DNA of 64,000 nucleotides from Candidatus Moraniibacteriota bacterium (GTDB taxonomy: Bacteria; Patescibacteriota; Minisyncoccia; Moranbacterales; UBA1568), in contig JAGOBM010000005.1 in assembly GCA_017983435.1 (NCBI GenBank), positions 28,469 to 92,468 on the forward strand. The letters run 5' to 3'. The translations under genes were made by a program, and so were the position numbers. Positions 6,434 through 61,684 of this stretch are shown piece after piece. Within the stretch, counting starts at the first letter, position 1. Every line of letters starts with the position of its first letter. The notes beneath the pieces were generated by a model. The model saw only the letters and a list, made by a program, of their open reading frames with translations, ran no database searches and was not told the DNA's origin.

Positions 6434-6819
6434 CTTTTCTAAGACAGGTTGGATTGCCGCGCTTTGGAGCCTTTTTTGGCTTCTTTGTGAGGAAAGTCCG
6501 GACACTCCCCATCGCTTGCGATGGAAGGGTAATGGGTAACTCCCATACGCCGCGAGGCGCGAGGTGCGAACAGAAACGGCCGATTCCGAAAGGGATCGGA
6601 TATCCGGGTGCAAATCCGGATAAGCCTCTCTGGTAACAGGGAGGGTGAAACGGCTAAATCCTTACCTGAGTGCAAGGTCGAGCTCCCGTTCATATTGCAG
6701 CTGCGATTGAGTGGGAGAGAACCGCACGGATCTGGCTGGCAACAGTCAGGCAAGAGAAATGGCAATCGTCCCGCTTCGGCGGGATACAGAATCCGGCTTA
6801 TAGGCCTGTCTTAGAAAAG
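6434..6819 (+). ncRNA. rnpB: RNase P RNA (bacterial type A)
   Basis: Contains universally conserved GAGGAAAGTCCGGAC (P4), GGGTGAAACGG, and ACAGAATCCGGCTTATAGG (P4 3' strand, cf. E. coli ACAGAACCCGGCUUAUCGG); 15-bp P1 helix cttttctaagacagg / cctgtcttagaaaag closes the molecule; about 386 nt. Confidence 0.9.
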
Positions 6820-6855: not shown

Positions 6856-8280
6856 ATGAAACGATCAGAAATATTCTTCAGCGCTCTGCAGCTCCCGGTG
6901 GATCTCCTCATGATCTCGCTCGCGGCGCTGAGCGCGTACTATGTCCGCAATATTCCGCAGATCCTCGCGCTTCGGCCGAAGCTCTACGATATCACGCTCT
7001 CCGGTTTCATGGAGGTGATTTTTTTCGTGGCGCCGATATTCGTCCTCATCTTCGCGCTCGAAGGACTCTACCAGATGCGGACCACGCGTCGCTTCTGGCA
7101 GGAAGCCTACCGGGTCTTCAAAGCGACCTCGCTCGTGCTTGTCATCGTCATCGTGGTGATCTTCCTCAAGCGCGAATGGTTCTCGTCCCGCTTCATCATC
7201 CTCGCGGGCTGGGGATTCACCGTCCTCTATATCACGCTCGGCCGCTATCTCATCGCCCGTGTCCAGCGCTATCACCTCCTCAAGAAGGGGACGGGTGTCC
7301 ACCGCGTGCTCCTCATCGGAACCAACGGCAAGATGCAGGCGATGAATCAGTACCTGACAGCGCATCGTGAGCTCGGCTACAAGATCGTCGCGCAGGTCTC
7401 CGGTGTCTCGCTCCATGAGATCAAAGCGATCCGGGCCGAACGGGGTATCGACGAGGTCATCGTCTGCGATCCGACCCTGACCGATGATGAACATGAGAAA
7501 CTCCTCGATTACTGTCAGATCAACAATATCGGCTATCGTTTCATCCCGACGACGCTCCAGGCGTCTCGTATCTCCATGCAGGTCGGCATCCTGAACGGCG
7601 AACCGATCATCGAGTACCAGCACACGCCGCTCGACGGCTGGGGCAAGGTCATGAAACGGGCCTTCGATCTCTTTGCCGGATCTATCCTGACCCTCATTGC
7701 GCTGCCGATCATGGGTATCATCGCGCTCCTCATCCGCATCGAAGACGGTACCGGACCGATCATCTACAAGAATGAGCGTGTCGGTCAGGACGGCAAGAAA
7801 TTCTATGTGTACAAGTTCCGGTATATGCTCTGGAAGCATTGTATCGCCAAGGAGAACCCGCATCTCGAGGCGGCGCTGGCTTTTGAGAAGCAGTTGATCG
7901 CCGAGCGCAATACGCGCGAAGGCGGCGTGCTGTACAAGATTAAGGATGACCCACGCAAGATGAAGGTCGGAGCCTTTATCGAACGTTATTCGCTCGATGA
8001 GCTGCCGCAGTTCTTCAATGTCCTCCGTGGAGAGATGAGTCTCGTGGGCCCGCGCCCGCATCAGCAGCGCGAGGTCGACAAATACAGCGAATACCATCGC
8101 CGGCTCCTCACCATCAAACCGGGCATCACCGGTATGGCACAGGTCTCCGGACGCTCTGATCTGCCGTTCGAAGACGAGTACCGCCTCGATGTCTACTATA
8201 TCGAGAACTGGTCGCTCTGGCTCGATATCATCCTCTGCCTCAAGACCTTCACCGCGCTCATCCGTCGTCGGAAAAATTAA
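6856..8280 (+). CDS. Undecaprenyl-phosphate sugar phosphotransferase (WbaP/WcaJ-like initiating glycosyltransferase)
   Basis: N-terminal multi-TM region, central linker, C-terminal bacterial sugar-transferase domain (KFRYM..., DELPQFFNVLRGEMSLVGPRP). Start moved from ORF-track 6670 to ATG 6856 because 6670-6819 is rnpB. Confidence 0.85.
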   Translation: MKRSEIFFSALQLPVDLLMISLAALSAYYVRNIPQILALRPKLYDITLSGFMEVIFFVAPIFVLIFALEGLYQMRTTRRFWQEAYRVFKATSLVLVIVIVVIFLKREWFSSRFIILAGWGFTVLYITLGRYLIARVQRYHLLKKGTGVHRVLLIGTNGKMQAMNQYLTAHRELGYKIVAQVSGVSLHEIKAIRAERGIDEVIVCDPTLTDDEHEKLLDYCQINNIGYRFIPTTLQASRISMQVGILNGEPIIEYQHTPLDGWGKVMKRAFDLFAGSILTLIALPIMGIIALLIRIEDGTGPIIYKNERVGQDGKKFYVYKFRYMLWKHCIAKENPHLEAALAFEKQLIAERNTREGGVLYKIKDDPRKMKVGAFIERYSLDELPQFFNVLRGEMSLVGPRPHQQREVDKYSEYHRRLLTIKPGITGMAQVSGRSDLPFEDEYRLDVYYIENWSLWLDIILCLKTFTALIRRRKN

Positions 8281-8841: not shown

Positions 8842-8996
8842 ACGAAAGCAGATTTTTTCTGTGCCAATTGAAATCTCTTTCCAAGGGGGAAACAATCTTT
8901 TCCTCGCTATCGCCTCGGAAGTCTCGGGCAGCAGAAAAAATTGTTTCCCCCTTGGAAAGAGACCCTATTCGATGGCGCAGAAAAAAATCTACTTTC
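8842..8996 (+). repeat. Hairpin element copy A (conserved core cctcgctatcgcctcggaagtctcgggcagcag; internal 23-bp perfect inverted repeat 8874-8896 / 8940-8962; outer stem cgaaagcagatttttt / aaaaaatctactttcg)
   Basis: Direct sequence comparison with copy B at 48075-48161: the core and the outer stem base are shared, the stem extensions are unrelated but perfectly paired in both. Confidence 0.8.
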
Positions 8997-9891: not shown

Positions 9892-11007
9892 TTATTCGAG
9901 GATATAATCGAGGGTCTCTCGAGCGCAGGTGTCCCAGGAGAAGTGCGTCAGGCGAGCTCGGCCCTGCGTGATGAGCTCAGCCCTGCACGACGCATCGGTC
10001 CAGAGCTGGAGAAGCGCTTCAGCGATCCCTGCGGTGTCGAAGGCATCGGCATAGAGCGCGGCATCGCCGGCTACTTCGGGGAGGCTGGAGTTCCGAGCGG
10101 TCAGGACCGGTGTGCCAGAGGCGAAGGCTTCGAGAATCGGAATGCCAAAACCTTCGAAGAGTGACGGGAAGGCGAAAGTGCGGGCTCCCTGGTAGAGCGC
10201 CGGGAGATGATCAGATGGCACCTGACCGGTCAGAAAGATATCGTCGCGATATGGAGAATGTTCTCGGGCAGCGATGATCGGATCGGACAGCCAGGCACGC
10301 TCGCCGGCGAGTACGAGCTTGGCTTCGGGCGCGGAGGCTTTGAGTATCCCGAAGGCCTCGATGAGACGGATGAGATTCTTGCGCGGCTGCAGCGCGCCGA
10401 CGTAGAGGATATACTGCTGATCACGGAGTCCGTAGCTCGCTAGGATGCGGGTTTTTTCATCGACGCTGACGGTTATTCCGAAACGCTCCTGGGTGAAGCC
10501 ATGGTGGATCACGCGTATGTTCCGGTCATCGAGATTCGGAAAGGAAGCGAGGAGATCCTGTCGAGTCGCTTCAGAGACGGCGATGATCTTGTCAGCGCGA
10601 GCGACAGCGCGGTTCAAGAGGAAATCAAGCTTGAAGCGGGTTTTGGGTGTAAACGTCTCTGGATAGTGCCGCCAGGCGATATCGTGTACGGTGACGGTAA
10701 TCTCGGCCGAAGCGGGCAGAAATACCGGGACGGCTTGGACCGGGAAAAATATCTTCTCCGGCCGGGTACGAAACATTTCGAGAGCGAACCGGGTCTGCAT
10801 CCACTGGCTCGGGAACGGCAGAGCGGTTTCAGCGTAGTTGTCGAAATGCGGAGGAGTGAGCTCAGGATTGAAACGTGTTTTGTGATAGAGATGGAAAGCT
10901 GTTTCGGGAGCGAGCGTGCCGAAACGCTTGAGGAGCTCGAGGAGGTAGATACGGGTGCCATCAATGCGGGCGGCATCCAAATCAGCGGCTTGGAGGGCAA
11001 TCGTCAT
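9892..11007 (-). CDS. Glycosyltransferase family 1 (GT4)
   Basis: GT-B fold with C-terminal motif FPSLFEGFGIPILEAFASGTPVL. Start trimmed to Met at 11007 (MTIALQAADL...); the ORF-track N-terminal extension is R/P-rich and non-coding-like. Confidence 0.85.
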   Translation of the reverse strand: MTIALQAADLDAARIDGTRIYLLELLKRFGTLAPETAFHLYHKTRFNPELTPPHFDNYAETALPFPSQWMQTRFALEMFRTRPEKIFFPVQAVPVFLPASAEITVTVHDIAWRHYPETFTPKTRFKLDFLLNRAVARADKIIAVSEATRQDLLASFPNLDDRNIRVIHHGFTQERFGITVSVDEKTRILASYGLRDQQYILYVGALQPRKNLIRLIEAFGILKASAPEAKLVLAGERAWLSDPIIAAREHSPYRDDIFLTGQVPSDHLPALYQGARTFAFPSLFEGFGIPILEAFASGTPVLTARNSSLPEVAGDAALYADAFDTAGIAEALLQLWTDASCRAELITQGRARLTHFSWDTCARETLDYILE

Positions 11008-24753: not shown

Positions 24754-26142
24754 ATGGATAAGCAGCATCGTTCTCGGTCGGTATCATTGCCGGCGGCACT
24801 GATCATCATGTTCGTCTCTTTGGGCGCCTTTGTCGGTACGGCCAAGCTGGTCGCGCCGGAGAAGCATTTCGGTTTGACGATGTTTTCTTTCGCGAGTTAT
24901 GACGACGAGGACAGTGATTCGGATGATAGCGATGAAGATGAAGACAAGGATGATGACGAGGATGAAGATAAGGATGATGACGAAGACAAAGCCGCAGAGA
25001 AAGAAGCTGAAAAGCGGAAGAAGGAATCCGAGAAGCAGCGCACAATGTCTCGGAGTGCTACCAGTGGATCATCGGCGTCTTCTGTAGTGAAGACCGAGGA
25101 TGATGATGCAGACGATACCGAGGACGATATGGACGAAGATGAAGATGAAGATGAGAATGAATCGGAAGGCGATGAGATGATGGAGTCTTCCGGAGGGATG
25201 TATAAAGAAAAAGAGAAGACACTCGAGCGATTGAATCGCGATTTGGCCAAGGCCGAGGAAGATATCATGAAGCAGGCCGAGAAGGGTGTCGATGTTTCGC
25301 CGCAATTGGCTGCTCTGGCAGCGTACAGGGCGCAACTCAGCACGGTTGGTGAAGCGTTTGATGTGGATGATCTTGATACGGCCAAGTCGCTCGCGAAGCA
25401 GCTGAAGAAAGAAGCCTACTTCTTGAAGAAGAGCGCTCAGGATGTCGAGAAGGTTGCCAAGGAGATGCAAGATGTCATGAAGCGCTTTGCTAAGGCTGAT
25501 GCGAAGATCGCTGAGCTGGAAGCGCTGGGTGGCGACACGGCTGCTTTGAAGGCTCAGCTGGATGTATTGCGATCGGACTATGCGGTACTGGAGTCGGCCA
25601 TCGCTACCGCTCCGGGGACGATTTCCCGCGATACCGTGAAGACCCTTGAGAAGAAAGTGCAGAGAGTAAAGAGCGCAGCGGAACTCGCTCTCTTTGCGCT
25701 CGGCGCGGATGATGATGGTGAATTGGCCATGGATCATGAAGACGAGTCGGATGATATCGTTGAACACCTCTTTGATGTCGCCGAGATAGAGGATGATGAG
25801 AATGGCGCTGTGACCGATCAGGTCCGCTCGGTCGCCGAGAATCAGCGAAGAGCGTCGAGGGCGGTGAAGTCTGCTGTCGATGATTTTGAACAGCGGAGCC
25901 GAGTGACGGAATTCTTCCTCGGTACCAATCAGGAAGCCTCGGCTCGGCTGACGGCTGAAATCGAGGCGATGCAATCACGCGCGATGGTTCTCGAGTCGGC
26001 TGCCGCCGCACTGGCTGATCCGGATATGAAGCAAATATTGCTCGATCAAGCAGCCGCTCTCCGTTCCGAAGCTGCCAAATTCTCGACGTATCTCAATACG
26101 CAGAACGCCGGTTTCAGCCTCTTCGGCTGGTTGTTCCAGTAG
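24754..26142 (+). CDS. Signal-anchored protein with extreme acidic D/E-rich low-complexity region and coiled-coil domain
   Basis: 462 aa; N-terminal TM; about 100 aa of DDEDEDKDDDEDEDKDDDEDK-type repeats encoded by tandem 24-nt DNA repeats at about 24925-24990; heptad-like A/K/E-rich C-terminal part. Confidence 0.6.
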   Translation: MDKQHRSRSVSLPAALIIMFVSLGAFVGTAKLVAPEKHFGLTMFSFASYDDEDSDSDDSDEDEDKDDDEDEDKDDDEDKAAEKEAEKRKKESEKQRTMSRSATSGSSASSVVKTEDDDADDTEDDMDEDEDEDENESEGDEMMESSGGMYKEKEKTLERLNRDLAKAEEDIMKQAEKGVDVSPQLAALAAYRAQLSTVGEAFDVDDLDTAKSLAKQLKKEAYFLKKSAQDVEKVAKEMQDVMKRFAKADAKIAELEALGGDTAALKAQLDVLRSDYAVLESAIATAPGTISRDTVKTLEKKVQRVKSAAELALFALGADDDGELAMDHEDESDDIVEHLFDVAEIEDDENGAVTDQVRSVAENQRRASRAVKSAVDDFEQRSRVTEFFLGTNQEASARLTAEIEAMQSRAMVLESAAAALADPDMKQILLDQAAALRSEAAKFSTYLNTQNAGFSLFGWLFQ

Positions 26143-26160
26143 GATTCGTTGAATATGCGC

Positions 26161-26192
26161 AAAGCCGAGGGTCATCAACTCTCGGCTTTTGT
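26161..26192 (+). terminator. Intrinsic terminator (aaagccgagggtcatcaactctcggctttt)
   Basis: 7-bp stem followed by T-run; immediately followed by an extended -10-like TGgTATTAT for speH. Confidence 0.7.
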
Positions 26193-26252
26193 GGTATTAT
26201 ATATTTTGGATGAGCGGATTCCGTTCAGGAAAATGTAACAAGATATTGTCAG

Positions 26253-26657
26253 TTGACTATGGCAGAGCAGAAACATTTTGGTGAGCATTTGACCTTGGAT
26301 GGCTATGGAGGAGATCATGACAAACTGAATAATAAAGAAGTAGTGCTTGCCTGTCTGAATAATCTGCCGGAGGAGCTCGGTATGCATAAGCTGTCCCAAC
26401 CAGAGATCTATTGGGCGGATGGCAATGACTCCAAAGATCCGGGCGGATGGAGCGGGTTCGTGGTGATTGAGGAAAGCCACATTAGCATCCATACGTTTCC
26501 GGGGAGGAAATTCGTTAGTATTGATGTGTATACGTGCCAGAACGGACTTGACAGAAAGTTTATTTCAGGTTATTTTATAAACAAGTTTGGCCTTCAGGAT
26601 ACCGAAGAAAACCTGGTAATCCGCGGGACGAAGTATCCAGAGAATAATCTGGTCTGA
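26253..26657 (+). CDS. speH: S-adenosylmethionine decarboxylase proenzyme (class 1b, pyruvoyl-dependent)
   Basis: 134 aa; processing/active-site motif VVIEESHISIHTFPG (E-S self-cleavage site) typical of small bacterial/archaeal AdoMetDC. Confidence 0.85.
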   Translation: MTMAEQKHFGEHLTLDGYGGDHDKLNNKEVVLACLNNLPEELGMHKLSQPEIYWADGNDSKDPGGWSGFVVIEESHISIHTFPGRKFVSIDVYTCQNGLDRKFISGYFINKFGLQDTEENLVIRGTKYPENNLV

Positions 26658-26683
26658 TATTTTCGATAGAGGAGGGCGTCCAC

Positions 26684-27160
26684 ATGTCAGCAGTCGTTTT
26701 AAAACTTATCATGAATGCTGCGACAGTCGTGGCATGGGTCTTGGGTATTTTCCTGAGTGTATTTGCGGTCTCGAAAGGATCGAAGCTGAAGGAGGAAATG
26801 GGCGTATCGTTTGGGATGTATATGACACTGGTCGGTGTGACGGAAGTCATTTACTCGGTTAGCGCGCTCCTTATCCTGTCTGCTATGGGGATCAATGTCG
26901 TCCAGTATCTGGTCGAGTTGAATTTCCGTCAGGCATTGGCTATCCTGCAGAGCTTCGATGTAACCACTATCCAGATAGTAGGTGTCCTCGGATGGGTTGG
27001 CTTTGTCATCAATCGATTGATTTCCTATGTCAGTCCGCTGTATCTCTTGATAGCCGGTGGTAAGAAATTGCATCGCTATTTTGTGATCTCGGCTTGGACG
27101 GAGATTACGCTGGAGACAACCCTGACTGTAGCGCTCTTTTGGATACTCTATTTCAAATAA
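26684..27160 (+). CDS. Membrane protein (4-5 TM), hypothetical
   Basis: 158-aa hydrophobic ORF with GGAGG RBS; lower-GC composition. Confidence 0.55.
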   Translation: MSAVVLKLIMNAATVVAWVLGIFLSVFAVSKGSKLKEEMGVSFGMYMTLVGVTEVIYSVSALLILSAMGINVVQYLVELNFRQALAILQSFDVTTIQIVGVLGWVGFVINRLISYVSPLYLLIAGGKKLHRYFVISAWTEITLETTLTVALFWILYFK

Positions 27161-27180
27161 GGATCTGTCTGGCGAGCAAG

Positions 27181-27224
27181 AAAAAAACGGGAGACATTGA
27201 TTCAATGTTCTCCCGATTTTTGTT
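27181..27224. terminator. Bidirectional terminator (aaaaaaacgggagacattgattcaatgttctcccgattttt)
   Basis: Long stem with A-run and T-run flanks between convergent genes. Confidence 0.7.
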
Positions 27225-27940
27225 TAGTCCATAAATGCTTCTGCAAGCATTTGGATGGAGGCGGCCTGCTCAGCGGATAATACATCCAAAAAAGGATTGT
27301 CGAGCATCATGAGCACACCGTAGTTTAAGCTTTCTTCATCATCCATATAATTCGGGATGATTCGGAGAGGGCGGAAGCCTTCGCTCATGTAGAGCTTGAT
27401 TTCCGGATCCCGAGTTTTTGGGTTGGACCCTGTCCCAAAAACGTGCTCCTCGATAGAACGCTTGGCGGCATGTTTCTGATACGCCGGTACTCGGGCGCCC
27501 AAGAGCGCTCCCTTCTTGCGGCCCCCGACGACAGAGGCGAGAAAAGCGGTACTGATGAGCTTGCTTGCCAATCCAAGCGCCTGATACTTGGGAGCGACCG
27601 TCAGATCGATCCCGAAAATGGTATCTCCATCTGGATCGTGTGTCGAGAGCGTCCGATAGCCGCTGATATCTTCCCAGGAAGAGCAGTGCATAGCGCGATC
27701 GAGCGTGGTGCAGAGCATGGTGGTCGAGGCAGCTACTTCCAGAGTTTCCATGTCGAGTACGACATAGATGAGTTCTGGACAGTAATTGAACTGTTCCATC
27801 ATGATCTCTTCGGTCCAGATGTATTTCGGGAGCGTGAGATCGCCCCAGGTTACCTGATTGATGTGAGCAATCTGGAGTGCCAGGTGTTTTTTTGAGAAAC
27901 CCTGGTTAAGCAAATCGGAAACACGAGCGACGTGAAACAT
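27224..27940 (-). CDS. GNAT-family N-acetyltransferase-like protein
   Basis: Motif VAPKYQALGLASKLI resembles GNAT motif A; start trimmed to Met 27940, which has an AGGAGG RBS. Confidence 0.5.
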   Translation of the reverse strand: MFHVARVSDLLNQGFSKKHLALQIAHINQVTWGDLTLPKYIWTEEIMMEQFNYCPELIYVVLDMETLEVAASTTMLCTTLDRAMHCSSWEDISGYRTLSTHDPDGDTIFGIDLTVAPKYQALGLASKLISTAFLASVVGGRKKGALLGARVPAYQKHAAKRSIEEHVFGTGSNPKTRDPEIKLYMSEGFRPLRIIPNYMDDEESLNYGVLMMLDNPFLDVLSAEQAASIQMLAEAFMD

Positions 27941-28101
27941 GGTGGACCTCCTGGTCTTGATGTTAATGAACGATAGTATAAAAGCATTTTTATATTGATT
28001 TGTCAATATCTGTAGAAGTTGGACGGTTCAAAGAAAAGAGCGATTTATGGTATGATTTCAATATAAGCTTTTGTGTTCATATTTCTTACATTTTTGAGCG
28101 T

Positions 28102-29739
28102 ATGATTTTTGAAGGAGGGGTAGTTTTTTTGTGGATTCTACTTTTTATGCTCTGCGGGGTCGGTGGGTATGTGTTTTGGAAGGATTCGAAGAGTCCTACG
28201 AATCGCGCGTTCCTGTACATGTCGATCGCCAATGCTCTCTGGGTGGCCATCGTGTTTCTGGAAGATGGACCGTATAGCGACTGGACGAAGTTCTTTTTGT
28301 TGCGCGCGGATTATGCCATGGGCCTCGTGTTCTCTTTCTACATCATGCTGTTTTGTTTTCGGGTGTCGGATCTCGTGACTTTGCGGAAGAACAAGCTGAT
28401 GTTTTTTATCGGTGCAATCATCTGGGGTCTGGCTACTTTGGCAATGATATCTCCGCTGGTGGTGGAGACGTTTACTATCGACGCGATTGGCAATATATTG
28501 CCTGTTTTTGGTGCTCTCGAATCCGTTTTTATGGGTGCAGTACTACTACTACTGCTTGTCGGGCTCGCTTCTCTCGGCTTTGGCTATAGGGCTATGGATG
28601 ATCGCGGTCGTGCGCGATTCGTATATCTGCTGATCGGTGTGATTTTTGCGGTTATGACGAGCATCGTATGCAATATCGTGTTGCTGAAATATTTTCAGAA
28701 TGTACCGGATATCCTCTTACTGCTAACAAGGGTCGGGATTTTCAGTTCCCTTTTCATACCGCTGCTTTCTGGGTATTCGATTATCAAGCATCGACTGATG
28801 AACGTGCAGGTCATCGCGACTGAGACGATCGCTTTCTTTTTTCTGTTCGCGAATTTTATCATCATCTTCTTTTCGCAGTCGGTTCTAGAATTATTGGTCC
28901 GTATCATCGCTTTTTGTATCATTCTGTTCCTTATCATCGCGCTGATCCGCTATATGGATAACGAGATGCAGCGGAAATCGGAGCTACAGGTCATAGCGGA
29001 TCGGCTGGCGCTGGCGAATCAGGAACTGAAGCGGTTGGACAATGCCAAATCGGAGTTCATCTCGATCGCATCACATCAGTTGCGCACGCCGCTTACCGCT
29101 ATCAAGGGGTATGCTTCGCTCATCCTCGAGGGGAATTATGGGAAGATAGACAGCCAGATGCAAGATGTCGTTAACAAAGTCTACGCGGCCAATACTCGTC
29201 TGATCGATCTTGTCGAGAATCTCCTGTCGATCTCCCGCCTCGAGTCCGGGCGGATGCAGTACAATTTTCAGCCGACGCAGGTCGAAGAGATCGTGACGGA
29301 TCTGGGCAATATGTTTGCAGTGAGCGCCAAGAAGCGAGGCTTGGATTTCTCAGTCGTGCTGCCGGAGCAGCCGTTGCCGAAAGTCGATCTCGATCCAGCC
29401 AAGATACGCGAGGTCATGTCGAATCTCATCGACAACGCCATCAAGTACACGGAGCATGGATCGGTAATAGCGAGTCTCTGGCAGGAGGGCGACAAGCTCC
29501 GCTACTCCGTCAAGGATACCGGCATCGGCGTGACCGCGGAAGACAAAGAACGGCTCTTCTCAAAATTCTCCCGAAGCAAGGAGACCGAGAAGCTCTATGT
29601 CGGCGGGACCGGTCTCGGTCTCTATGTCGGCAAGACCTTTGTCGAGAAGCATGGCGGCCGTATCTGGGTGGAATCAGCTGGACATGGCCGAGGATCGGAA
29701 TTCATTTTTGAGCTTCCGATTTCCCGTGATTCGCTGTAA
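28102..29739 (+). CDS. Sensor histidine kinase with N-terminal multi-TM sensor domain
   Basis: HisKA H-box IASHQLRTPLTAIKG, HATPase_c N/G1/G2 boxes (DNAIKYT, DTGIGV, GGTGLGL); start uncertain (ATG 28102; RBS GAAGGAGG precedes a TTG at about 28129). Confidence 0.85.
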   Translation: MIFEGGVVFLWILLFMLCGVGGYVFWKDSKSPTNRAFLYMSIANALWVAIVFLEDGPYSDWTKFFLLRADYAMGLVFSFYIMLFCFRVSDLVTLRKNKLMFFIGAIIWGLATLAMISPLVVETFTIDAIGNILPVFGALESVFMGAVLLLLLVGLASLGFGYRAMDDRGRARFVYLLIGVIFAVMTSIVCNIVLLKYFQNVPDILLLLTRVGIFSSLFIPLLSGYSIIKHRLMNVQVIATETIAFFFLFANFIIIFFSQSVLELLVRIIAFCIILFLIIALIRYMDNEMQRKSELQVIADRLALANQELKRLDNAKSEFISIASHQLRTPLTAIKGYASLILEGNYGKIDSQMQDVVNKVYAANTRLIDLVENLLSISRLESGRMQYNFQPTQVEEIVTDLGNMFAVSAKKRGLDFSVVLPEQPLPKVDLDPAKIREVMSNLIDNAIKYTEHGSVIASLWQEGDKLRYSVKDTGIGVTAEDKERLFSKFSRSKETEKLYVGGTGLGLYVGKTFVEKHGGRIWVESAGHGRGSEFIFELPISRDSL

Positions 29740-47875: not shown

Positions 47876-48000
47876 CGCCGGTGCGACAGGAATCGTCTGA
47901 TCAATCTCAGGTCTCTAAAAAGGGTATCCGCCAACGTGAAAACGCGCGAGATATCGGCCAGCTCTGAGAGAATGATTCCGCTTCGCAAGATGCAGATTTG

Positions 48001-48045
48001 AAGGGACGAGTTGCCAATGTGCAGCCCGTCCCTTTCACTTTTTCC
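48001..48045 (+). terminator. Terminator-like hairpin (aagggacg...cgtccctt + tcactttttcc)
   Basis: 8-bp stem followed by T-rich run, 125 nt downstream of the LysM gene. Confidence 0.5.
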
Positions 48046-48074
48046 GGTAAGGATTTCTGTGCAGGAGTTGATTC

Positions 48075-48161
48075 CAGCCGAGCTGCGAAAGTAGATTTTT
48101 TCCTTGCTATCGCCTCGGAAGTCTCGGGCATCAGAAAAAACCTACTTTCGCAGCTCGGCTG
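48075..48161 (+). repeat. Hairpin element copy B (perfect 20-bp stem cagccgagctgcgaaagtag / ctactttcgcagctcggctg around core ccttgctatcgcctcggaagtctcgggcatcag)
   Basis: The core differs from copy A at 2 of about 32 positions; the stem base cgaaagtagatttttt is shared, the outer 11 bp are unique to B. Confidence 0.8.
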
Positions 48162-48249
48162 AAACCCTCGGGCGTCGAAAGAAATCTCTTTTGGTCCAGA
48201 CTCAGTCGGAACATGTATTTTTTGGCTTTTTAGAGGGTATTTTGGACTC

Positions 48250-48278
48250 TTGACAAAAGAGGCGTTTAGGTGTACTAT
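48250..48278 (+). promoter_or_regulatory. Sigma-70 promoter TTGACA - 17 nt - TGTACTAT; upstream block ggactcttgacaaaa
   Basis: Consensus -35 with extended -10; the 15-mer ggactcttgacaaaa is identical at 55299-55313. Confidence 0.65.
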
Positions 48279-48396
48279 GGGGAGTCATCAATAAAAACAA
48301 GAGATGGCACAGGTTTCAAGTGTAGTACCTTAAGCGCTCGGTGATCCATCCGGGTCTCGAGCACATCGATTGCGCTTTTCTCAATAGGAGGTCATC

Positions 48397-51415: not shown

Positions 51416-52612
51416 ATGAAAATACTGGAGGTCAATAAATTCTTTTTTGAGAAGCGCGGCGCCGAGCGGCACTTCTTCGACCTGTGCCGGCTGCTGGAGC
51501 GACGGGGCCACGAGGTGGCAGTGTTTGCGATGCGGCATCCGGAAAATACACCTTCGCTGTGGGAAAAGTATTTCCTGTCGCAGGTCGGCTACAACCCGGG
51601 CGATTCGGATCTCCGGGCCAAGCTCATCGGCATCGGCCGGCTGTTCTGGTCATGCGAAGCGCGGACGAAGATGCGAGCGCTGCTCCACGACTTCGCTCCG
51701 GATATTGTGCACGTACACAATGCCTACCATCAGCTCTCCCTCGCTTTTTTTCCACTGATACGGGAAGCGGGCGTACCGCTCATCCTGACCGCGCATGATT
51801 ATGCGGCCGTATCACCGGACAAGGATGCTTACTATCCGGAGGTCGGCCGACAGTATTGGCGATTCCTCCGTATCCGGAAATACAGTCTCGGCAAGCGTCT
51901 TCTCTTGGTGCTGAAAAAATACTGGGAGGACCTCGCCGGTTTCTATACGGCTGTCGATCGCTTCATCGTCCCGAGCCGATTCGTCGCCCAGACATTCGAA
52001 GCGGCCGGCATCAATAGGGAGCGCATCGTGGTTATGCCGCACTTCATCGCGGCAGAGCGAGTGTCGGCTATCGCATTGACGGATATCGTCCTTCCGGAGC
52101 GCTTCATCCTGTATTTCGGAGCGATGACCGAAGGGAAAGGCGTACAGGAGCTCTCCGGTATCGCATCACGTGTCGGTCTGCCACTGGTCGCGGCCGGACG
52201 TATCGATGCGGGCTTCGACCAGGCGAGCTGCCCAGGGACACTGTTCATCGGGCCTCGGACACCGGGCGAGCTCTGTTTCCTGATCGAGCACGCCACCTGC
52301 GTCGCGAGTGCCTCGAGCTTGGCGGAGACATTCGGCCTGACCGCGCTCGAGACAATCGCGCTCGGTAAGCCGTTCTTCGCGCTCGCGAGCGGAGCGGTGC
52401 CAGAAATGATCCACAACGGAATCAACGGGTATGTCGCCGCCGATATCACAGAACTTGAAACGCTGATACGCGGATTCATAGATGGTACGCGCACCGTCGC
52501 TCCAGCAGAGAATATCGTGAGCGCTGCCCGCGCTACCTACGGCGCCGATCGCTATGCCGATCGCTTCGAAAGTTTGGTGAAGGAATTACGACAGGCCTTC
52601 TCGAATTTTTAA
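51416..52612 (+). CDS. Glycosyltransferase family 1 (GT4)
   Basis: MKILEVNKFFFEKRGAERHF N-terminus; GT-B C-terminal domain. Confidence 0.85.
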   Translation: MKILEVNKFFFEKRGAERHFFDLCRLLERRGHEVAVFAMRHPENTPSLWEKYFLSQVGYNPGDSDLRAKLIGIGRLFWSCEARTKMRALLHDFAPDIVHVHNAYHQLSLAFFPLIREAGVPLILTAHDYAAVSPDKDAYYPEVGRQYWRFLRIRKYSLGKRLLLVLKKYWEDLAGFYTAVDRFIVPSRFVAQTFEAAGINRERIVVMPHFIAAERVSAIALTDIVLPERFILYFGAMTEGKGVQELSGIASRVGLPLVAAGRIDAGFDQASCPGTLFIGPRTPGELCFLIEHATCVASASSLAETFGLTALETIALGKPFFALASGAVPEMIHNGINGYVAADITELETLIRGFIDGTRTVAPAENIVSAARATYGADRYADRFESLVKELRQAFSNF

Positions 52613-52830
52613 GAAGAACTTCTAGTCAGCCACTTCTAAAAAATATCGTCCCCCTCCCGTCAAGCTATCCCTTCGGGAGTCTCTCGTCCGTCCAGCGACG
52701 GACTTCATTGCGTGAAATCCAAGTCATCCGTCATTCTGACGGAACCATGCTGACTTGGCTTTCAAGCCTCCCGAAAAGATACTTGAGGAAGAGGGACTGG
52801 GTTACTGGTATTTTTTTGTTTGGTGTTTTT

Positions 52831-53017
52831 AGACCCTTTCCCGCAAAGAATTTTGCACCATGTCGCTTTCAAGTCGGAAACCGTTTCCGACACGAGCGCC
52901 GCTAGAAAATTTCCGTGACGCGAGCGTAGTCGTAGCTGGACAGGAAATTTCATCGGCGTGACGTTGGAAAACGGTCGACTGAAAGTGCGGGGCAAAATTC
53001 TTTGCGGGAAAGGGTCT
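52831..53017. repeat. 187-bp MITE-like palindromic element with perfect 26-bp terminal inverted repeats (agaccctttcccgcaaagaattttgc)
   Basis: TIR 52831-52856 is the exact reverse complement of 52992-53017; the interior is itself a nested set of inverted and direct repeats (for example gtcggaaaccgtttccgac); no ORF. Confidence 0.7.
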
Positions 53018-53084
53018 GAGAACTGATAAAAATACCAAGAACTTCATCAGGATTTTGACTGTGTCCTCAGACAATAAAAAAACT

Positions 53085-53122
53085 ACCGGCGTGAGAACTG
53101 GTAGTTTTTTTATCTGCAAAAG
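53085..53122. terminator. Bidirectional terminator (aaaaaaactaccggcgtgagaactggtagttttttt)
   Basis: 6-bp stem with symmetric A-run and T-run; serves the convergent ACS gene. Confidence 0.7.
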
Positions 53123-53128
53123 AAACAG

Positions 53129-55249
53129 CTAGTCGGCTTCGATGCGGATGCGGGCATCGAGGGTGCGGAAGTCTTCGGCGTGTTCAAAAGCGAGCAGCGG
53201 GTTGATGTCGAGCTCAGCGATTTCGGGGAAGTCAGTCGCGATGCGGGCCAGGCGGCCGATGGCATCGATGATCGCCTCGCGGTCCACACCGGCTTGGCCG
53301 CGCGCTCCTTCGAGGAGCGGATAGCTTTTGAGCTCACGGAGCATGGCCTCGGCATCCTCGCGGGTGAGGGCCTCGGCGAAGCGGAAGCTGGCATCCTTGA
53401 AGACTTCGACGAAGATCCCGCCGAGTCCGATCATGATCAAGGTACCGAGCCCCGGCTCTTTCTTGAGACCGAGTATGAGCTCGAGGCCGCTTTTTTCGGC
53501 CATTTCGACGACGAGTGCTCCTTCGAGCCGGGCCTCCGGGACACGGGCTCTGACAGTCGCCATGAGCTCGTCATAGGCCTGATCGGCGTGCTCCGGATCG
53601 ATGCCGAGCAGGACACCACCAGCATCTGATTTATGAGTGATGTCTGGTGAGACGATTTTGAGGACAACTGGCTTACCGATCTTCTGTGCCGCAGCGAGCG
53701 CCGACTCCCGTGAAGTGACGACCTGATGCGAGAGGAAGCGGAATCCGTAGGCGGAGAGTATGCGCATGCAGTCGGCTTCGGGGATCTGCAGCTGATTGTT
53801 TTTCCGGGCAGCTTTGATGGTCTTGCGAGCGACCGCGGTATCGATATCCGGAAAATCAAAAGGAGTGGTGCCGAGCTCGGTGCGCCAGCGCGAGACCTGA
53901 GCGAGATGGCCGAGCGTCCGGGCGGCGGCTTCCGGCGAGCGGAGAGCGGCTACCTGATGATTTTCGAGGAAGGCTTTGGCAGAGCCGAAAGACTGATCAC
54001 CTGAGAGCGAGACGATGATCGGCTTGGTAGGGAATCGGTCGCGGGCCGAAGCGATCGCCTCAGCGGTCTTGTCGGCTTCAGTCATGGCCTGGGGAGTGAT
54101 GATGACGAGCAGCATATCGACGTTCGGATCGGCGAGTGCCGTATCGAGCGAGCGCTCGTAGCGATCGGCATGCGCATCGCCGAGGACATCGATAGGATTG
54201 TGACTATTGGCAGCGGCCGGCAAGAAGGATTGGAACATCGCGATGGTTTCCGGTGCCAGGATCGCGAGCTCGAGTCCTTGGCTGACACAGGCATCGGTAG
54301 CCATGACACCGAGTCCGCCGGCGTTGGTCAGGATCGCGACGCGGTTGCTTTCGGGGAGAGGGTTCTTGGAGAAGACTTCGAGCGCGGCGGTGAGCTCTTC
54401 CAGGCCATCGACGCGGATGATACCCGCTTGTCGGAAGAGGGCTTCATAGGCAGCGTCGCTGCCGGCCAGTGCGCCGGTGTGCGAGGAGGAGGCCGCCGTA
54501 CCGGCCGCGGTCTTGCCGGACTTGAGCGCGACGATCGGCTTGGGTTCAGCACGGCGGAGTATCGCCCGGCCGGTATCGATGAGACCTTTCGCGTCGGAGA
54601 GGTCTTCGGAATAGAAACCGATAGTCTTGGTCGTCGCATCAGCCGCGAAGAAGCGGAGCAGGTCGTTTTCTTGGAGCATGGCCTTGTTGCCGGTGCTGAC
54701 GCAGATCCGATAGCCGAGCCGTCGGCCGCTCATATCGAGGAGCGCGGTGAGGAGCGCTCCGCTCTGAGAGAAGAAAGCGATCGGGCCGGCCTCGGGGAGC
54801 GTCTTGGCAAATGAGGCATTGAGATGATCGTGCGGCGCGAGAAAGCCGAGACAATTGGGACCGAGCAGGGTGATGGAATATTCGGAGGCGATACGGAGAA
54901 CTTCCTCTTCGAGCGCTTTGCCTGGGGCACCGGTCTCCTTGAAGCCGGCGGAAATAATGGCGGCTGCAGGGATCTGTTTCTTGCCGCATTCGCGGAGCAC
55001 AGCCGGGACGATAGCCGCGGGTACGGCGATGACGGCGAGGTCGACGGATCCTTCGATGGCGAGGACGGACGGGAAGCACGGCTTGCCGAAGAGTTCGGTT
55101 GCCTTGGGATTGATTGGATAGCTGGCGCCGGAGAATTGCTCGATGATATTTTTGGCGAGAGTCCAGCCGACGCTGCCTTCCTGGGTCGAGGCGCCGATGA
55201 TAGCGATGGACTGGGGTCGGAACAGGGTGGAAAGTTGCATAAAACGCAT
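53129..55249 (-). CDS. Acetyl-CoA synthetase (ADP-forming), fused alpha-beta (NDP-forming acyl-CoA synthetase, ACD)
   Basis: 706 aa; N-terminal CoA-binding Rossmann (IAIIGAS...), succinyl-CoA-synthetase-like flavodoxin domain, C-terminal ATP-grasp beta part (KSDAGGV...). Confidence 0.9.
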   Translation of the reverse strand: MRFMQLSTLFRPQSIAIIGASTQEGSVGWTLAKNIIEQFSGASYPINPKATELFGKPCFPSVLAIEGSVDLAVIAVPAAIVPAVLRECGKKQIPAAAIISAGFKETGAPGKALEEEVLRIASEYSITLLGPNCLGFLAPHDHLNASFAKTLPEAGPIAFFSQSGALLTALLDMSGRRLGYRICVSTGNKAMLQENDLLRFFAADATTKTIGFYSEDLSDAKGLIDTGRAILRRAEPKPIVALKSGKTAAGTAASSSHTGALAGSDAAYEALFRQAGIIRVDGLEELTAALEVFSKNPLPESNRVAILTNAGGLGVMATDACVSQGLELAILAPETIAMFQSFLPAAANSHNPIDVLGDAHADRYERSLDTALADPNVDMLLVIITPQAMTEADKTAEAIASARDRFPTKPIIVSLSGDQSFGSAKAFLENHQVAALRSPEAAARTLGHLAQVSRWRTELGTTPFDFPDIDTAVARKTIKAARKNNQLQIPEADCMRILSAYGFRFLSHQVVTSRESALAAAQKIGKPVVLKIVSPDITHKSDAGGVLLGIDPEHADQAYDELMATVRARVPEARLEGALVVEMAEKSGLELILGLKKEPGLGTLIMIGLGGIFVEVFKDASFRFAEALTREDAEAMLRELKSYPLLEGARGQAGVDREAIIDAIGRLARIATDFPEIAELDINPLLAFEHAEDFRTLDARIRIEAD

Positions 55250-58693: not shown

Positions 58694-60067
58694 ATGAAAC
58701 GCGTTTCAAATCTCACCTACTGGACCCGCTTCGCGATCATCGCGAGCATCTTCCTCTTCGGATGGTTCGTCTTCTGGGAGGTCAAGAATCAGGGCTGGCT
58801 GCGACTGGCTGATTTCTCGTCGCTCTTGCCGGTACCGGAAGAGGAGCAGACGGATATCGAAGCTCTCTCGCTCATCGCTGACCGGCTCATGGATACGGAT
58901 GGAGAGACCAAGACGTTCATGCTCCTGTTTCAGAACAATCTTGAGTTGCGCCCAGGTGGTGGGTTCATCGGATCATTCGGTGTCCTCAAGGTGCGCGATG
59001 GAGAAGTGCTCGAATTCGCGACGCATGACACCGGCAATTTCGATGGTCGTATCCCGGATACCGTGACGCCTCCGTATCCGATGGCCGAACTGTTGCATAT
59101 CAAATCCTGGAAGCTGCGCGACTCGAACTATTCCCCGGATTTTCCGACCAATGCCCAAGAGGCAGTGCGCTTCTATGAGCTCGGCGGAGGCCAGGAGCAA
59201 TTCGACGGCGTCATCGGCGTTACCGCCCAGGTGCTCTCATCGCTTCTCTCCGTCACCGGACCGGTGACCGTCGAGGGCTTCCCCGGGACCTACGGAGCGG
59301 ACAATGCGATCCTCGATCTCGAATACCAGGTAGAGAAAGGCTACACGCAGCAGGCTATCGCCGTCGGCGAGCGCAAGTCGGTGCTCAAACTCCTGGGCGA
59401 TGTCGTGCTCACGAAGGTCAAAACCTTGCCGCTCTCGGAGAAGTACGAGCTGTTTACCGTGCTCCTCACGGATCTCCATCGGAAGGATATCCAGGTGTAT
59501 TTCAGTGATGCAGACCTGCAGGATATCGTCGTCGGTGCCGGCTGGGACGGTGCGGTCGATACGGCCTGGAAGAATGACTCCTTCATGCTGGTCGATGCCA
59601 ACCTGGGCGCGCTCAAGAGCGACTATCACATGGAGCGCCGCATCGAATACCTGATCGACCTCTCGGGTGCCGCTCCGAAAGCGACACTCAAGATGACCTA
59701 TAAGCATCATGGGACCGCTCGCGATTGGTATACGAAAGAGTATGTGAGCTATCTCCGGGCCTATATCCCGGAGGGCAGCTATGTCACTCGCGTGGAGCAT
59801 GGCGACAAGCCGGTCTACGGATCGGAACTCGGCCGGAAATATGTCGGCGTAATCGTCGGCGTGCCGCTCGCTTCCGAGAAGACCGTGACATTCGAATACA
59901 CGCTGCCGGCTTCCATCGCATCCGACTGGTATGACCTCAAAGTCATGAAGCAGCCGGGTACGAAAGATACGCCGGTCAGCATCACCGTGATCGGCCAGGA
60001 CGGTATGATCAAAACCCAGAATGAGACTCTCGACCGCGATTTCACGCTGAGCGAACGAAACGATTAA
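58694..60067 (+). CDS. DUF4012-domain protein (membrane-anchored)
   Basis: N-terminal TM; FMLLFQNNLELRPGGGFIGSFG is the signature block of DUF4012. Confidence 0.75.
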   Translation: MKRVSNLTYWTRFAIIASIFLFGWFVFWEVKNQGWLRLADFSSLLPVPEEEQTDIEALSLIADRLMDTDGETKTFMLLFQNNLELRPGGGFIGSFGVLKVRDGEVLEFATHDTGNFDGRIPDTVTPPYPMAELLHIKSWKLRDSNYSPDFPTNAQEAVRFYELGGGQEQFDGVIGVTAQVLSSLLSVTGPVTVEGFPGTYGADNAILDLEYQVEKGYTQQAIAVGERKSVLKLLGDVVLTKVKTLPLSEKYELFTVLLTDLHRKDIQVYFSDADLQDIVVGAGWDGAVDTAWKNDSFMLVDANLGALKSDYHMERRIEYLIDLSGAAPKATLKMTYKHHGTARDWYTKEYVSYLRAYIPEGSYVTRVEHGDKPVYGSELGRKYVGVIVGVPLASEKTVTFEYTLPASIASDWYDLKVMKQPGTKDTPVSITVIGQDGMIKTQNETLDRDFTLSERND

Positions 60068-60080
60068 AACATTCAACTCT

Positions 60081-60176
60081 CTTGGAAAGGACGCTTTCCA
60101 AGCAGAGGAAAAGGAACAGGTGCATGTGCCGTCTTCCTGTTCCTTTCCCTCTGCTCTTGCAGAAAGAGTTTTTTTG
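60081..60176 (+). terminator. Compound terminator: three consecutive hairpins (9-bp, 19-bp, 5-bp stems) followed by a T7 run
   Basis: cttggaaagg-acg-ctttccaag; gcagaggaaaaggaacagg / cctgttcctttccctctgc; ctctt-gcaga-aagag + ttttttt. Confidence 0.7.
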
Positions 60177-60204
60177 TATTTCATCCTACCGAAGGAGGTG
60201 TGTC

Positions 60205-60819
60205 ATGCTGTATGTATATGGACTGGGATTCAGTCTCTTGCTCATGGTTCTCGTGGTTTTCTTCTTGGGACCCAGGTCTTTTCTGGGTATATTCATGCGG
60301 ACGTATACATTACCAATCTGTCTGCAAAGGGAAGTGGTGGCTGCATACCACAAAGAACAGAAATTCTTGTTTTTGTTCCTGCGCACACTTGCGCTGCTTT
60401 TGCCGGTGTACGTCCTATACAGGCTTTCTGCTCTGACATCTGGAGGGGTTACTGGATTAGATCTGTCAGAAAAGCTACAACCTGATCTTGCGTCTGCGAG
60501 CATGATTATGGTACCCAGCATATTCCTCCTTTTGCTCATTCTTAAGGTTAAAATAGAAGCTTTTTGGATGAGGCTGGATTGGGCACTTCTGTGTCAGAAA
60601 TACGCGACTGTTTCTGGGAGGATCATGCAGATCAAGGTTGATTCTCATGACTCTGGGCTTTTGTATCTCACCCTTCATTCGCGCGATAACGAAGAAGCAC
60701 ACGAGTTGAAAATCACAAAGGCAACCTGGGATGTTTCTGCGAATCTGCTCTCGTCATGCGTCATGATCTTTTACGATGCAAAGTCAAAGATGATCCATTT
60801 TGTAGGCCCTGATTACTGA
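60205..60819 (+). CDS. Hypothetical membrane protein (204 aa) in a low-GC island
   Basis: GAAGGAGG RBS; hydrophobic N-terminal half; GC about 45% versus about 58% in flanking genes. Confidence 0.5.
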   Translation: MLYVYGLGFSLLLMVLVVFFLGPRSFLGIFMRTYTLPICLQREVVAAYHKEQKFLFLFLRTLALLLPVYVLYRLSALTSGGVTGLDLSEKLQPDLASASMIMVPSIFLLLLILKVKIEAFWMRLDWALLCQKYATVSGRIMQIKVDSHDSGLLYLTLHSRDNEEAHELKITKATWDVSANLLSSCVMIFYDAKSKMIHFVGPDY

Positions 60820-60845
60820 TGAGTGAGTCGTAGTATGAGATACAT

Positions 60846-60886
60846 ACCGCCCTTGGAAAGAAATTTCTCGGGGCGGTTTTACTTTT
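60846..60886 (+). terminator. Intrinsic terminator (accgcccttggaaagaaatttctcggggcggttttacttttt)
   Basis: 7-bp GC stem with T-runs. Confidence 0.65.
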
Positions 60887-60970
60887 TCTCAGGCCGTTTT
60901 TCTGATAAACTGGCTGTATATGAGGAAAGGTGGTCTCACCTCTTTTTCTGGTTTCTCTGAAATATTGTTT

Positions 60971-61684
60971 ATGCGTTTTGATATCGTATCTATTTTTCCG
61001 GAGAGTTTCTCATCGTATTTCGGCGTGTCCATCCTGAAACGGGCGGAAGAAGCTGGATTGATCCAGGTGGCGACGCATGACCTTCGGGTCTATACGGAAG
61101 ACAAGCACAGCCGGGTCGATGACACGCCGTATGGCGGCGGCGCCGGCATGGTGATGCAGGTCGAGCCATTCGATCGCTGTCTCGAGTCTCTCCGGGCTGA
61201 TAGAGCGACGGCTGATCTGCGCACCCGAGTGCTGCTTTTTTCCGCGAAGGGACAATCCTTCAAACAGGCGGATGCCCGTCGGTTGGCAGCCGGGTACGAT
61301 CGGATTATCATGCTCTGCGGCCGCTACGAAGGTATCGATGAGCGGGTAGTCGAGCACCTAGTCGATGAAGAATTCTCTATCGGGGATTTCGTCCTGACTG
61401 GGGGAGAATTGCCGGCGATGATCGTCGCGGATGCCGTAGCGCGCTTGCTGCCGGGAGTGCTCGGCAATGATGAGAGCGCACAGACGGAGTCGCATAGCGA
61501 GGAGGGAGTCGTCGAATATCCGCAGTATACGAAACCGGAGTCCTATCGCGATTGGGTCGTGCCGCCGGTGCTCTTGTCCGGCCATCACGCTGAGATTGAG
61601 CGGTGGCGAGGTGAACAATCGGCCAAGAACAGCGCCGCCCGACTGAATCATACCGACGAACCACACGAATCACATGATGAGTAA
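60971..61684 (+). CDS. trmD: tRNA (guanine37-N1)-methyltransferase
   Basis: [12 protein letters not shown]-terminus, SPOUT fold motifs ([32 protein letters not shown]). Confidence 0.9.

Follow-up and report, generated by a model that had tools for sequence, protein, structure and literature searches.

The spacer between a GT4 glycosyltransferase gene and the convergent gene for an ADP-forming acetyl-CoA synthetase (ACS), 516 bp at positions 52613-53128 of the window (the whole stretch of DNA analysed here, 64 kb long), holds a genuine non-coding feature, probably a structured RNA cassette that is so far uncatalogued. The cassette is about 400 nt long, from about 52606 to 53022, and consists of an AU-rich hairpin, H0, and two folded domains, A and B, see Table 1. 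It has a homologue at the same site in one other lineage and is conserved above the flanking genes. Its base pairs are preserved strand-specifically between the two lineages, a recombination breakpoint lies to its left within the GT4 gene, and it carries no coding or known-family signal. The explanation that we favour, with a confidence a little above even, is that the cassette does not code for protein, works as folded RNA, has been moved by homologous recombination and has a role at transcript 3' ends.

Anatomy of the spacer

The initial annotation had placed the spacer between a GT4 gene ending at 52612 and a convergent ACS gene ending at 53129, which is correct. The flanking proteins have homologues assigned to Candidatus Moranbacteria (Patescibacteria/CPR). 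The spacer had also been called the longest non-coding stretch in the window, but the stretch at 47876-48396 is slightly longer (521 bp). The reported density of hairpins is borne out, as the 516-bp spacer folds at -223/-224 kcal/mol compared with -142 +/- 7 for shuffles, corresponding to z = -11.8 on the + strand and -12.2 on the - strand. Five independent assemblies, three NCBI MAGs and two from Logan, agree on the spacer with 100% identity, and the palindrome is not a perfect one; on these grounds an assembly artefact was rejected.

The perfect 26-bp inverted repeat, AGACCCTTTCCCGCAAAGAATTTTGC, is exact, and from shuffles the chance expectation for such a repeat is 0 matches, even with 3 mismatches tolerated. 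Pairing continues outward imperfectly, covering 52825-52859 / 52989-53023 (35 nt, 91%) and further out 52801-52815 / 53028-53042, the last segment lying in the tail between domain B and the terminator. The ends of the repeat unit are thus not sharp, as imperfect pairing runs on to 52801/53042. The interior is itself an imperfect palindrome, with arms that are about 69% complementary over 258 aligned columns. Of the 187-bp unit proposed earlier the repeat stands, while its extent does not: the real unit runs from about 52606 to 53022 and comprises two domains and an AU-rich hairpin. What had been read as a 26-bp "terminal inverted repeat" forms the bottom helix of domain B. The separate hairpins that had been noticed 5' of the repeat exist and jointly form one branched structure, domain A.

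Table 1. Coordinates of the features in and around the spacer (positions in the window).
Feature	Position	Strand	Remark
GT4 glycosyltransferase gene	51416-52612	+	Last gene of surface-polysaccharide operon
GT4 gene 3' end, last ~15 codons	52566-52612	+	Belongs to cassette haplotype
Hairpin H0, AU-rich, TTTTTAAGAAG / CTTCTAAAAAA	52606-52643		16-nt non-conserved loop; includes GT4 stop codon
Domain A, Y-shaped three-way junction	52648-52799	- (tentative)	Better fold on -
T-rich inter-domain spacer	52800-52828		~29 nt; GTATTTTTTTGTTTGGTGTTTTT in window, shorter unrelated stretch in L030
Domain B, rod-like hairpin, ~78 pairs	52829-53022	+	Conserved core 52857-52993; lower helix lineage-specific
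26-nt repeat, left arm	52831-52856	+	Basal helix of domain B
26-nt repeat, right arm	52992-53017	-	Basal helix of domain B
Window-specific tail, domain B to terminator	53023-53075		No homologue in L030 or L010
Bidirectional intrinsic terminator	53076-53111	both	A7, 7-bp stem CTACCGG/CTGGTAG, 8-nt loop, T7
ADP-forming acetyl-CoA synthetase (ACS) gene	53129-55249	-	Convergent with GT4

In H0, 10 of 11 positions pair (read from the sequence); both arms are kept in the homologue from lineage L030, described below, while the loop is different. Read on the - strand, the 5' arm of H0 is a U6 tract 3' of domain A, and the alignment of the window and L030 has a conserved AUUUUUU at this place. Domain A is composed of a ~30-bp basal helix, a branch with hairpin CCGTCATTCTGACGG and the hairpin GTCCGTCCAGCGACGGAC. 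The predicted fold of domain B contains small internal loops only. Its left repeat arm includes a 14-nt near-palindrome, GCAAAGAATTTTGC, that is missing from L030 on both arms.

To the right of the cassette lies a further part of the spacer that had not been singled out earlier, the terminator, which folds on both strands and is common to the GT4 operon and ACS. It is about 90% identical in the L010 lineage, which itself has neither domain A nor domain B. The terminator is thus backbone, outside the cassette.

A homologue at the same site

The sole homologue found is in the L030-L033 lineage (GCA_964580285.1, one JGI metagenome and two Logan runs), where the GT4/ACS spacer is 446 bp and 80.6% identical over 397 nt. 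It occupies the same GT4/ACS site, with amino acid identities of 80% for ACS and 70% for GT4, and the neighbours in both lineages are alike: Wzy_C, GT4, ADP-forming acetyl-CoA synthetase and a beta-helix protein. The conservation is concentrated in the cores, with 140/152 identical positions in A (92%) and 122/137 in B (89%), and GTGAAATCCAAGTCATCCGTCA, GGAAATTTCATCGGCGTGACG and CGTGACGCGAGCG serve as its conserved core words. The four flanking genes have 65-75% nucleotide identity, which drops to 37-51% at third codon positions (to 37-42% in the three nearest genes, ACS, GT4 and Wzy). By this measure third codon positions are near saturation between the two lineages, and in sequence identity the cassette is better conserved than the neighbouring enzymes, although the high identity of the cores could in part reflect recent lateral transfer and not constraint.

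The 26-nt repeat is the least conserved part of the cassette. In L030 the lower helix of domain B is formed by AAAGTCCTTTCGTCCC pairing with GGGACGAAAGGGTTTT; the sequence of the 26-mer is not kept, while the pairing is.

Substitutions preserve pairs on opposite strands

Both lineages agree in the strand on which each domain folds best. For domain A the minimum free energy (MFE) is -87.4 on the - strand versus -73.0 on the + strand in the window, and -75.9 versus -71.0 in L030. For domain B it is the + strand that is favoured, with -107.4 versus -95.9 in the window and -91.2 versus -75.7 in L030. Domain A has 5 and 3 G-U pairs on the - strand and 0 on the + strand, and the asymmetry between strands in both energy and G-U pairs agrees in the window and L030.

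The consensus folds of the two lineages contain no broken pairs. In the RNAalifold structure of domain B on the + strand, 55 of the 69 pairs are unchanged, 8 have one-sided changes (G-U type), 6 are compensatory and 0 are broken. A pair-survival test was chosen to escape the bias of consensus folds: taking the MFE structure of one lineage, we compared the substitutions of the other with the same number of random ones, reciprocally in both lineages. For the core of B on the + strand, 49/50 pairs are kept, a value reached by 0 and 2 of 5000 simulations in two runs, and 47/50 in the reciprocal comparison (p~0.02, 0.023). On the - strand, 42/47 and 46/50 are kept (p = 0.26 and 0.065). Domain A keeps 55/56 and 56/59 pairs on the - strand (p~0.001, 6 of 5000, and ~0.045), and 51/53 and 51/55 on the + strand (p = 0.018 and 0.19); its strand preference is accordingly modest, p 0.001-0.045 versus 0.018-0.19.

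As judged from these two sequences, substitutions preserve pairing strand-specifically, in domain B for the + strand and in domain A preferentially for the - strand. With just two lineages carrying the cassette, all covariation comes from a single pairwise comparison. The strand-specific tolerance of G-U changes fits a single-stranded structure, most likely RNA, over protein recognition of duplex ends. The suggestion made at the outset of a structured non-coding RNA is thus supported, with cores that are 89-92% identical where synonymous sites are saturated and base pairs that are kept strand-specifically by way of G-U intermediates and compensatory changes.

One of several cargoes in a hypervariable slot

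The GT4/ACS junctions were compared in ten lineages, retrieved via exact-protein look-ups. At this site the cassette is missing in eight related lineages, which have either an empty site or unrelated protein genes. The lineages closest to the window are L010-13 (GT4 93-94% and ACS 96% amino acid identity). Here, a gene for a 289-aa membrane-anchored protein replaces A and B and is followed by the same terminator and a further two-gene insert, which in L010 is 2.4 kb long and bordered by a 47-nt duplication of the ACS 3' end. Other variable membrane-protein genes are present in the slot in L015/16/29 and L017/18, two small genes in L040 and a WecG gene in L036-39. L026/27 have an empty site with a 75-bp spacer, i.e., the bidirectional terminator alone, and the L026 terminator differs from that of the window but is of the same type. 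Finally, GT4 and ACS abut or overlap in L034, L035 and L041-44. A third carrier was also sought in the added lineages P0006, P0125, P0126, P0129 and P0131, all of which are without the cassette. As eight related lineages do without it, any role of the cassette is dispensable.

Sliding-window identity places a recombination breakpoint at about 52563-52570, inside the 3' end of GT4. Left of about 52560 the window matches L010 at 80-100% and L030 at 45-65%, while from about 52566 on the match switches to L030, with which GAAAGTTTGGTGAAGGAA is shared exactly, and L010 no longer matches. The C-termini of GT4 agree with this breakpoint, being ESLVKEL in the window and ESLVKEI in P0005 versus EGLIAEM in P0001. 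On the right side, homology to L030 stops at about 53020 and homology to L010 resumes at 53076. The boundaries of presence and absence are therefore at about 52566, within GT4, and at about 53020-53076, not at the ends of the repeat, and the polymorphic unit takes in domain A and the GT4 tail, more than the 187-bp unit. The breakpoint in GT4 together with the switch of homology on the right side indicates that homologous recombination carried the cassette from one lineage to another. Its high identity may hence in part be a record of this lateral exchange.

It can be asked whether the structures act instead as DNA, i.e., as single-stranded or cruciform hairpins in a recombination or integration site (att- or attC-like) or in the priming of DNA synthesis. 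The slot is a proven insertion hotspot with different cargo in ten lineages, the L010 insert of 2.4 kb and two genes has its 47-nt duplicate of the ACS 3' end, and opposite-strand hairpins together with a stem perfected on both arms fit template switching. We nevertheless consider a DNA-level role very unlikely. No recombinase, integrase or transposase adjoins the cassette in either lineage, the other cargo variants have no related border sequence, the breakpoint is in coding sequence as for ordinary homologous recombination, and the many G-T wobble positions are tolerated better by RNA than by DNA.

The cassette might also be a functionless relic, either a decayed cargo gene or an old inverted duplication, carried by recombination in a fast-changing locus. 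Such a relic would be dispensable, as the cassette is in eight related lineages, it would have no assignable function, and palindromes can form and be perfected mechanically. However, neither DNA nor protein comparison reveals similarity to the relatives' cargo genes, the cores retain 89-92% identity between lineages that are saturated at neutral sites, and pair-breaking is avoided far more than under random substitution, which makes a relic highly improbable.

Copies, coding potential and known families

The initial annotation had offered a non-autonomous MITE as one candidate. A selfish palindromic repeat with many copies elsewhere in the genome, comprising domain B or the cassette as a whole and being either a MITE or an element like ERIC or Correia, would agree with the perfect 26-bp inverted repeat within an overall imperfect palindrome, with the patchy occurrence among close relatives, and with conservation above the flanking genes, as in ERIC elements. 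A multi-copy family is formally possible, the copy searches having covered the 64-kb window, the relatives' loci and public collections. In these, no second copy was found by BLAST and covariance models in the window or in about 170 kb of the relatives' loci. In GTDB representatives and JGI metagenomes the repeat 20-mer TTTCCCGCAAAGAATTTTGC matches only by chance, at 10 loci, and in IMG/VR it has no match; none of these collections includes the source genome. All 10 loci are isolated 20-25-nt matches in unrelated contexts, without an inverted partner. Two core probes, GTGAAATCCAAGTCATCCGTCA and GGAAATTTCATCGGCGTGACG, gave no match against viral contigs, nor did a BLAST search of the spacer against phage and plasmid collections.

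Other observations also argue against a selfish repeat. The flanks read ...GGTGTTTTT / element / GAGAACTGA... and contain no target-site duplication; the earlier remark that none was obvious holds for each pair of ends considered (52831/53017, 52825/53023 and 52801/53042). The homologue keeps the pairing and not the repeat sequence, both known copies occupy the same site, a polymorphism boundary within GT4 points to homologous recombination rather than transposition, and the G-U-type changes are strand-specific. Most tests thus go against the MITE candidate, which has no target-site duplication, no second copy found in the sequence searched and polymorphism boundaries outside the repeat. On present evidence, drawn from sequence comparison, the cassette does not appear to be a MITE, and we regard a selfish repeat of any of these kinds as quite unlikely.

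Covariance models were built for the core of B (R1) and for A (R2), and neither finds lineages beyond the window and L030. Weak R2 matches (16-21 bits) to other long hairpins are generic stem matches, because in them the whole interior is deleted and both strands score. Domain A has a marginal similarity to a separate "conserved-loop hairpin" family (GCTATC.C.TCGG.AGTCTC, 17/20), with a local score of 14 versus a null of 9.8 +/- 1.4; 6-8 of 300 shuffles are as good.

A search of the whole window against Rfam 15 at the gathering threshold returned RNase P RNA and two tRNAs, and nothing in the spacer. At E<=10 for the spacer and E<=5 for the L030 spacer, only generic hairpin (miRNA-precursor) or noise matches appear, far below threshold. 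The description of the spacer as non-coding is upheld: its ORFs have no match in Pfam, and five spacer ORF translations, concatenated, retrieved no homologue in a search of 5.8 billion proteins. Small ORFs that are conserved have 33 aa on the + strand and 28-29 aa and 20 aa on the - strand.

Several specific identities were tried and rejected. A pseudogene of cargo is not supported, as tblastn with the relatives' cargo proteins (289, 201, 207, 212, 227, 373 and 316 aa) finds nothing in the spacer. A type I toxin-antitoxin locus does not fit, as the conserved small ORFs are hydrophilic and have no Shine-Dalgarno sequence. No reverse transcriptase, IscB/TnpB, recombinase, integrase or transposase is adjacent in the window or L030; with neither a reverse transcriptase nor IscB/TnpB next to it in either lineage, the cassette is not a retron ncRNA or an omega RNA. 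Against 6S RNA stand the missing Rfam 6S match, the small internal loops of B and its absence from eight related lineages here. No relevant work on structured RNAs or hairpin repeats in the CPR came up in the literature searched.

A proposed folded RNA at transcript 3' ends

No sigma-70-like promoter is present on either strand of the spacer in the window or L030, while the RNase P RNA in the same genome has a canonical promoter, TTGACT-N17-TGTATAAT. L030 has no canonical terminator between the convergent genes. The U tracts of A on the - strand and of B on the + strand are 4-15 nt from the stems and were not called in the terminator scan.

These features bear on a further possibility, that A and B are two independent sRNA genes, divergent from 52800-52830 with A to the left and B to the right, maybe an antisense or toxin-antitoxin-like pair with non-consensus promoters. 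In both lineages each domain favours the strand that the other does not, A has a conserved U6 behind it on the - strand, B has a terminator or a U tract behind it on the + strand, and a weak TTGAGG-N17-TGGTAT can be read from the sequence upstream of B. In L030, however, this version is poorer (TTGAGG-N17-TGGTAA), promoter-like sites are absent on both strands in both lineages, and the domains are just ~29 nt apart, in a stretch that is not conserved. The small ORFs are not hydrophobic and have no ribosome-binding site, and thus encode no type I toxin. A pair of divergent sRNA genes is therefore unlikely.

We suggest instead that the cassette is one of several alternative cargoes that can occupy the slot between GT4 and a shared bidirectional terminator, and that it would have moved between Moranbacteria lineages via homologous recombination in the flanking genes, not by transposition. 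In the window lineage, the basal helix of domain B would have been lengthened by 14 bp on both arms. The 26-bp stem would then have been perfected, likely by templated (fold-back) correction of a quasi-palindrome, or alternatively by selection for a longer helix.

Transcription of the cassette, its functional strandedness and its role in termination or at 3' ends are what we infer from this arrangement. As it is promoterless and located upstream of a terminator, like the co-transcribed cargo of the relatives, the cassette would be transcribed on the + strand as the 3' end of the GT4 operon. A - strand transcript could arise via read-through from ACS. At its 3' end each transcript would thus carry the domain whose fold is better on that strand, i.e., on the + strand B, with the terminator behind it in the window and a U tract in L030, and on the - strand A together with U6. 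The domains could serve as oversized 3'-end hairpins, which stop or insulate convergent transcription and protect 3' ends. Alternatively, they might be released as stable 3'-derived small RNAs.

A bolder proposal, which we rate as unlikely, is that the cassette represents a new class of accessory, laterally exchanged structured RNA of the CPR. This would be a non-coding "allele" rivalling membrane-protein genes for the slot, with domains on opposite strands, for example a sense/antisense module, an RNA-based defence or a regulator of surface variation.

The genomes of Patescibacteria/CPR are about 1 Mb with short spacers, and a conserved non-coding block of 400 nt is conspicuous because of this. 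To our knowledge, very few structured ncRNAs have been described for Patescibacteria/CPR. The 3'-end cassette proposed here is an accessory feature that alternates with protein-coding cargo at a hypervariable cell-surface locus. If transcribed, the cassette is a candidate for a new RNA family and a handle on the variation and insulation of surface-polysaccharide operons in these episymbionts. It would also illustrate that what looks like a transposon end, a perfect terminal inverted repeat, can instead be the base of an RNA hairpin that was freshly "perfected".

Comparison with known systems

Correia-type elements of Neisseria have 26-bp terminal inverted repeats and are 100-155 bp long. The 187-bp unit resembles MITE and Correia elements in its size, its 26-bp repeat, its intergenic and probably transcribed position and its folding into a long hairpin. 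However, the cassette has no target-site duplication, no other copies were found, and the repeat sequence is not conserved in the homologue. Its polymorphism is also not bounded by the repeats; it is at one fixed site and is inherited or exchanged together with domain A.

The ERIC elements of enterobacteria are about 127 bp long, are present in tens to hundreds of copies per genome and have been reported to be conserved above their flanking genes. Like ERIC/IRU elements, the cassette includes an imperfect palindrome in a probably transcribed spacer, is variably present at orthologous sites, is conserved above its neighbours and has a suspected role at the RNA level. The cassette is different in being about 400 nt long, in having two unlike domains and in being present as one copy per lineage in the sequence searched.

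Like bidirectional terminators and REP-type 3'-UTR stabilisers, the cassette is located where convergent genes meet, forms stable hairpins near U tracts on either strand and lacks a promoter; in L030 no other structure separates the two genes. In contrast to terminators it is ten times larger and branched, its primary sequence is conserved and its U tracts are offset, and the window has a normal terminator too.

Finally, 6S RNA is a rod with a large central bubble and a core gene. Compared with the large or rod-like ncRNAs in Rfam (6S RNA, OLE, HEARO/omega RNA and raiA), the cassette matches no model, is accessory and not core, and has no IscB/TnpB or reverse transcriptase nearby. It is nevertheless similar to them in having 150-200 nt per domain, irregular helices and conserved pairing.

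A separate family of hairpins with a conserved loop

The window also holds hairpins that form a family separate from the structured cassette between the GT4 glycosyltransferase gene and the convergent acetyl-CoA synthetase (ACS) gene. Their 31-nt loop, CTYGCTATCGCCTCGGAAGTCTCGGGCAKCA, is nearly identical between copies and is carried on stems of about 30 bp that differ in sequence. The conserved-loop hairpin at 48072-48164 sits inside a non-coding spacer of 521 bp (window 47876-48396), slightly longer than the GT4/ACS spacer and 67-97% conserved in relatives. In the syntenic spacer, the loop orientation in the relatives' loci L010, L011, L013 and L014 is opposite to that in the window, L001, L003 and L012. 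The GT4 protein is the same in L010 and L012. L010 itself contains two copies, one in each orientation. One possibility is a repeat that inverts or recombines. The family has no match in Rfam and was not found in IMG/VR.

Positions of features in the window and in relatives' loci
Feature	Position	Strand	Remark
RNase P RNA, class A	window 6441-6816		134.8 bits
Conserved-loop hairpin, copy 1	window 8874-8962
Conserved-loop hairpin, copy 2	window 48072-48164
Conserved-loop hairpin, partial third copy	window about 48165-48200
Conserved-loop hairpin, L010 copies	L010 2558-2646, 2698-2786
33-codon ATG ORF in domain B	window 52860-52961	+	frame still open in L030
GT4/ACS slot cargo	L010 7206-10524; L015 1614-2839; L016 2448-3086; L018 3194-3877; L040 4549-5375

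Domain A, the Y-shaped fold of the cassette, and the hairpin loop have GCTATC.C.TCGG.AGTCTC in common (17/20; window 52664-52683 versus 8906-8925 and 48106-48125). Equal scores occur in 6-8 of 300 shuffles, i.e., the likeness is only marginally above chance.

Small ORF and slot cargo

The ORF within domain B, the rod-like hairpin, differs from its L030 counterpart by four synonymous and four non-synonymous changes. It has no ribosome-binding site, its start codon is hidden within a helix and its product is hydrophilic; the ORF is probably incidental.

In relatives, the hypervariable GT4/ACS slot holds small, unrelated genes. For several of the encoded proteins, an N-terminal membrane anchor (MKKSYLIA...VLIWEKQKQ) is all they have in common, and their C-terminal domains are divergent. 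The 2.4-kb insert of L010, coding for a protein with a CHAP domain and another of 316 aa, is flanked by a duplicate of the ACS 3' end (47 nt, 96%; 8143-8189 versus 10531-10577), as though the insert had integrated into the 3' end of ACS and the end of the gene had been regenerated in the process.

Base composition and promoter signals

The G+C content is clearly lower at window 26001-29000 and 60001-61000 (0.44-0.47 versus about 0.55-0.6 elsewhere), and these stretches may be acquired DNA. The RNase P RNA in the window is preceded by a canonical promoter, TTGACT-N17-TGTATAAT, which shows that standard sigma-70 promoter signals are in use in this organism.
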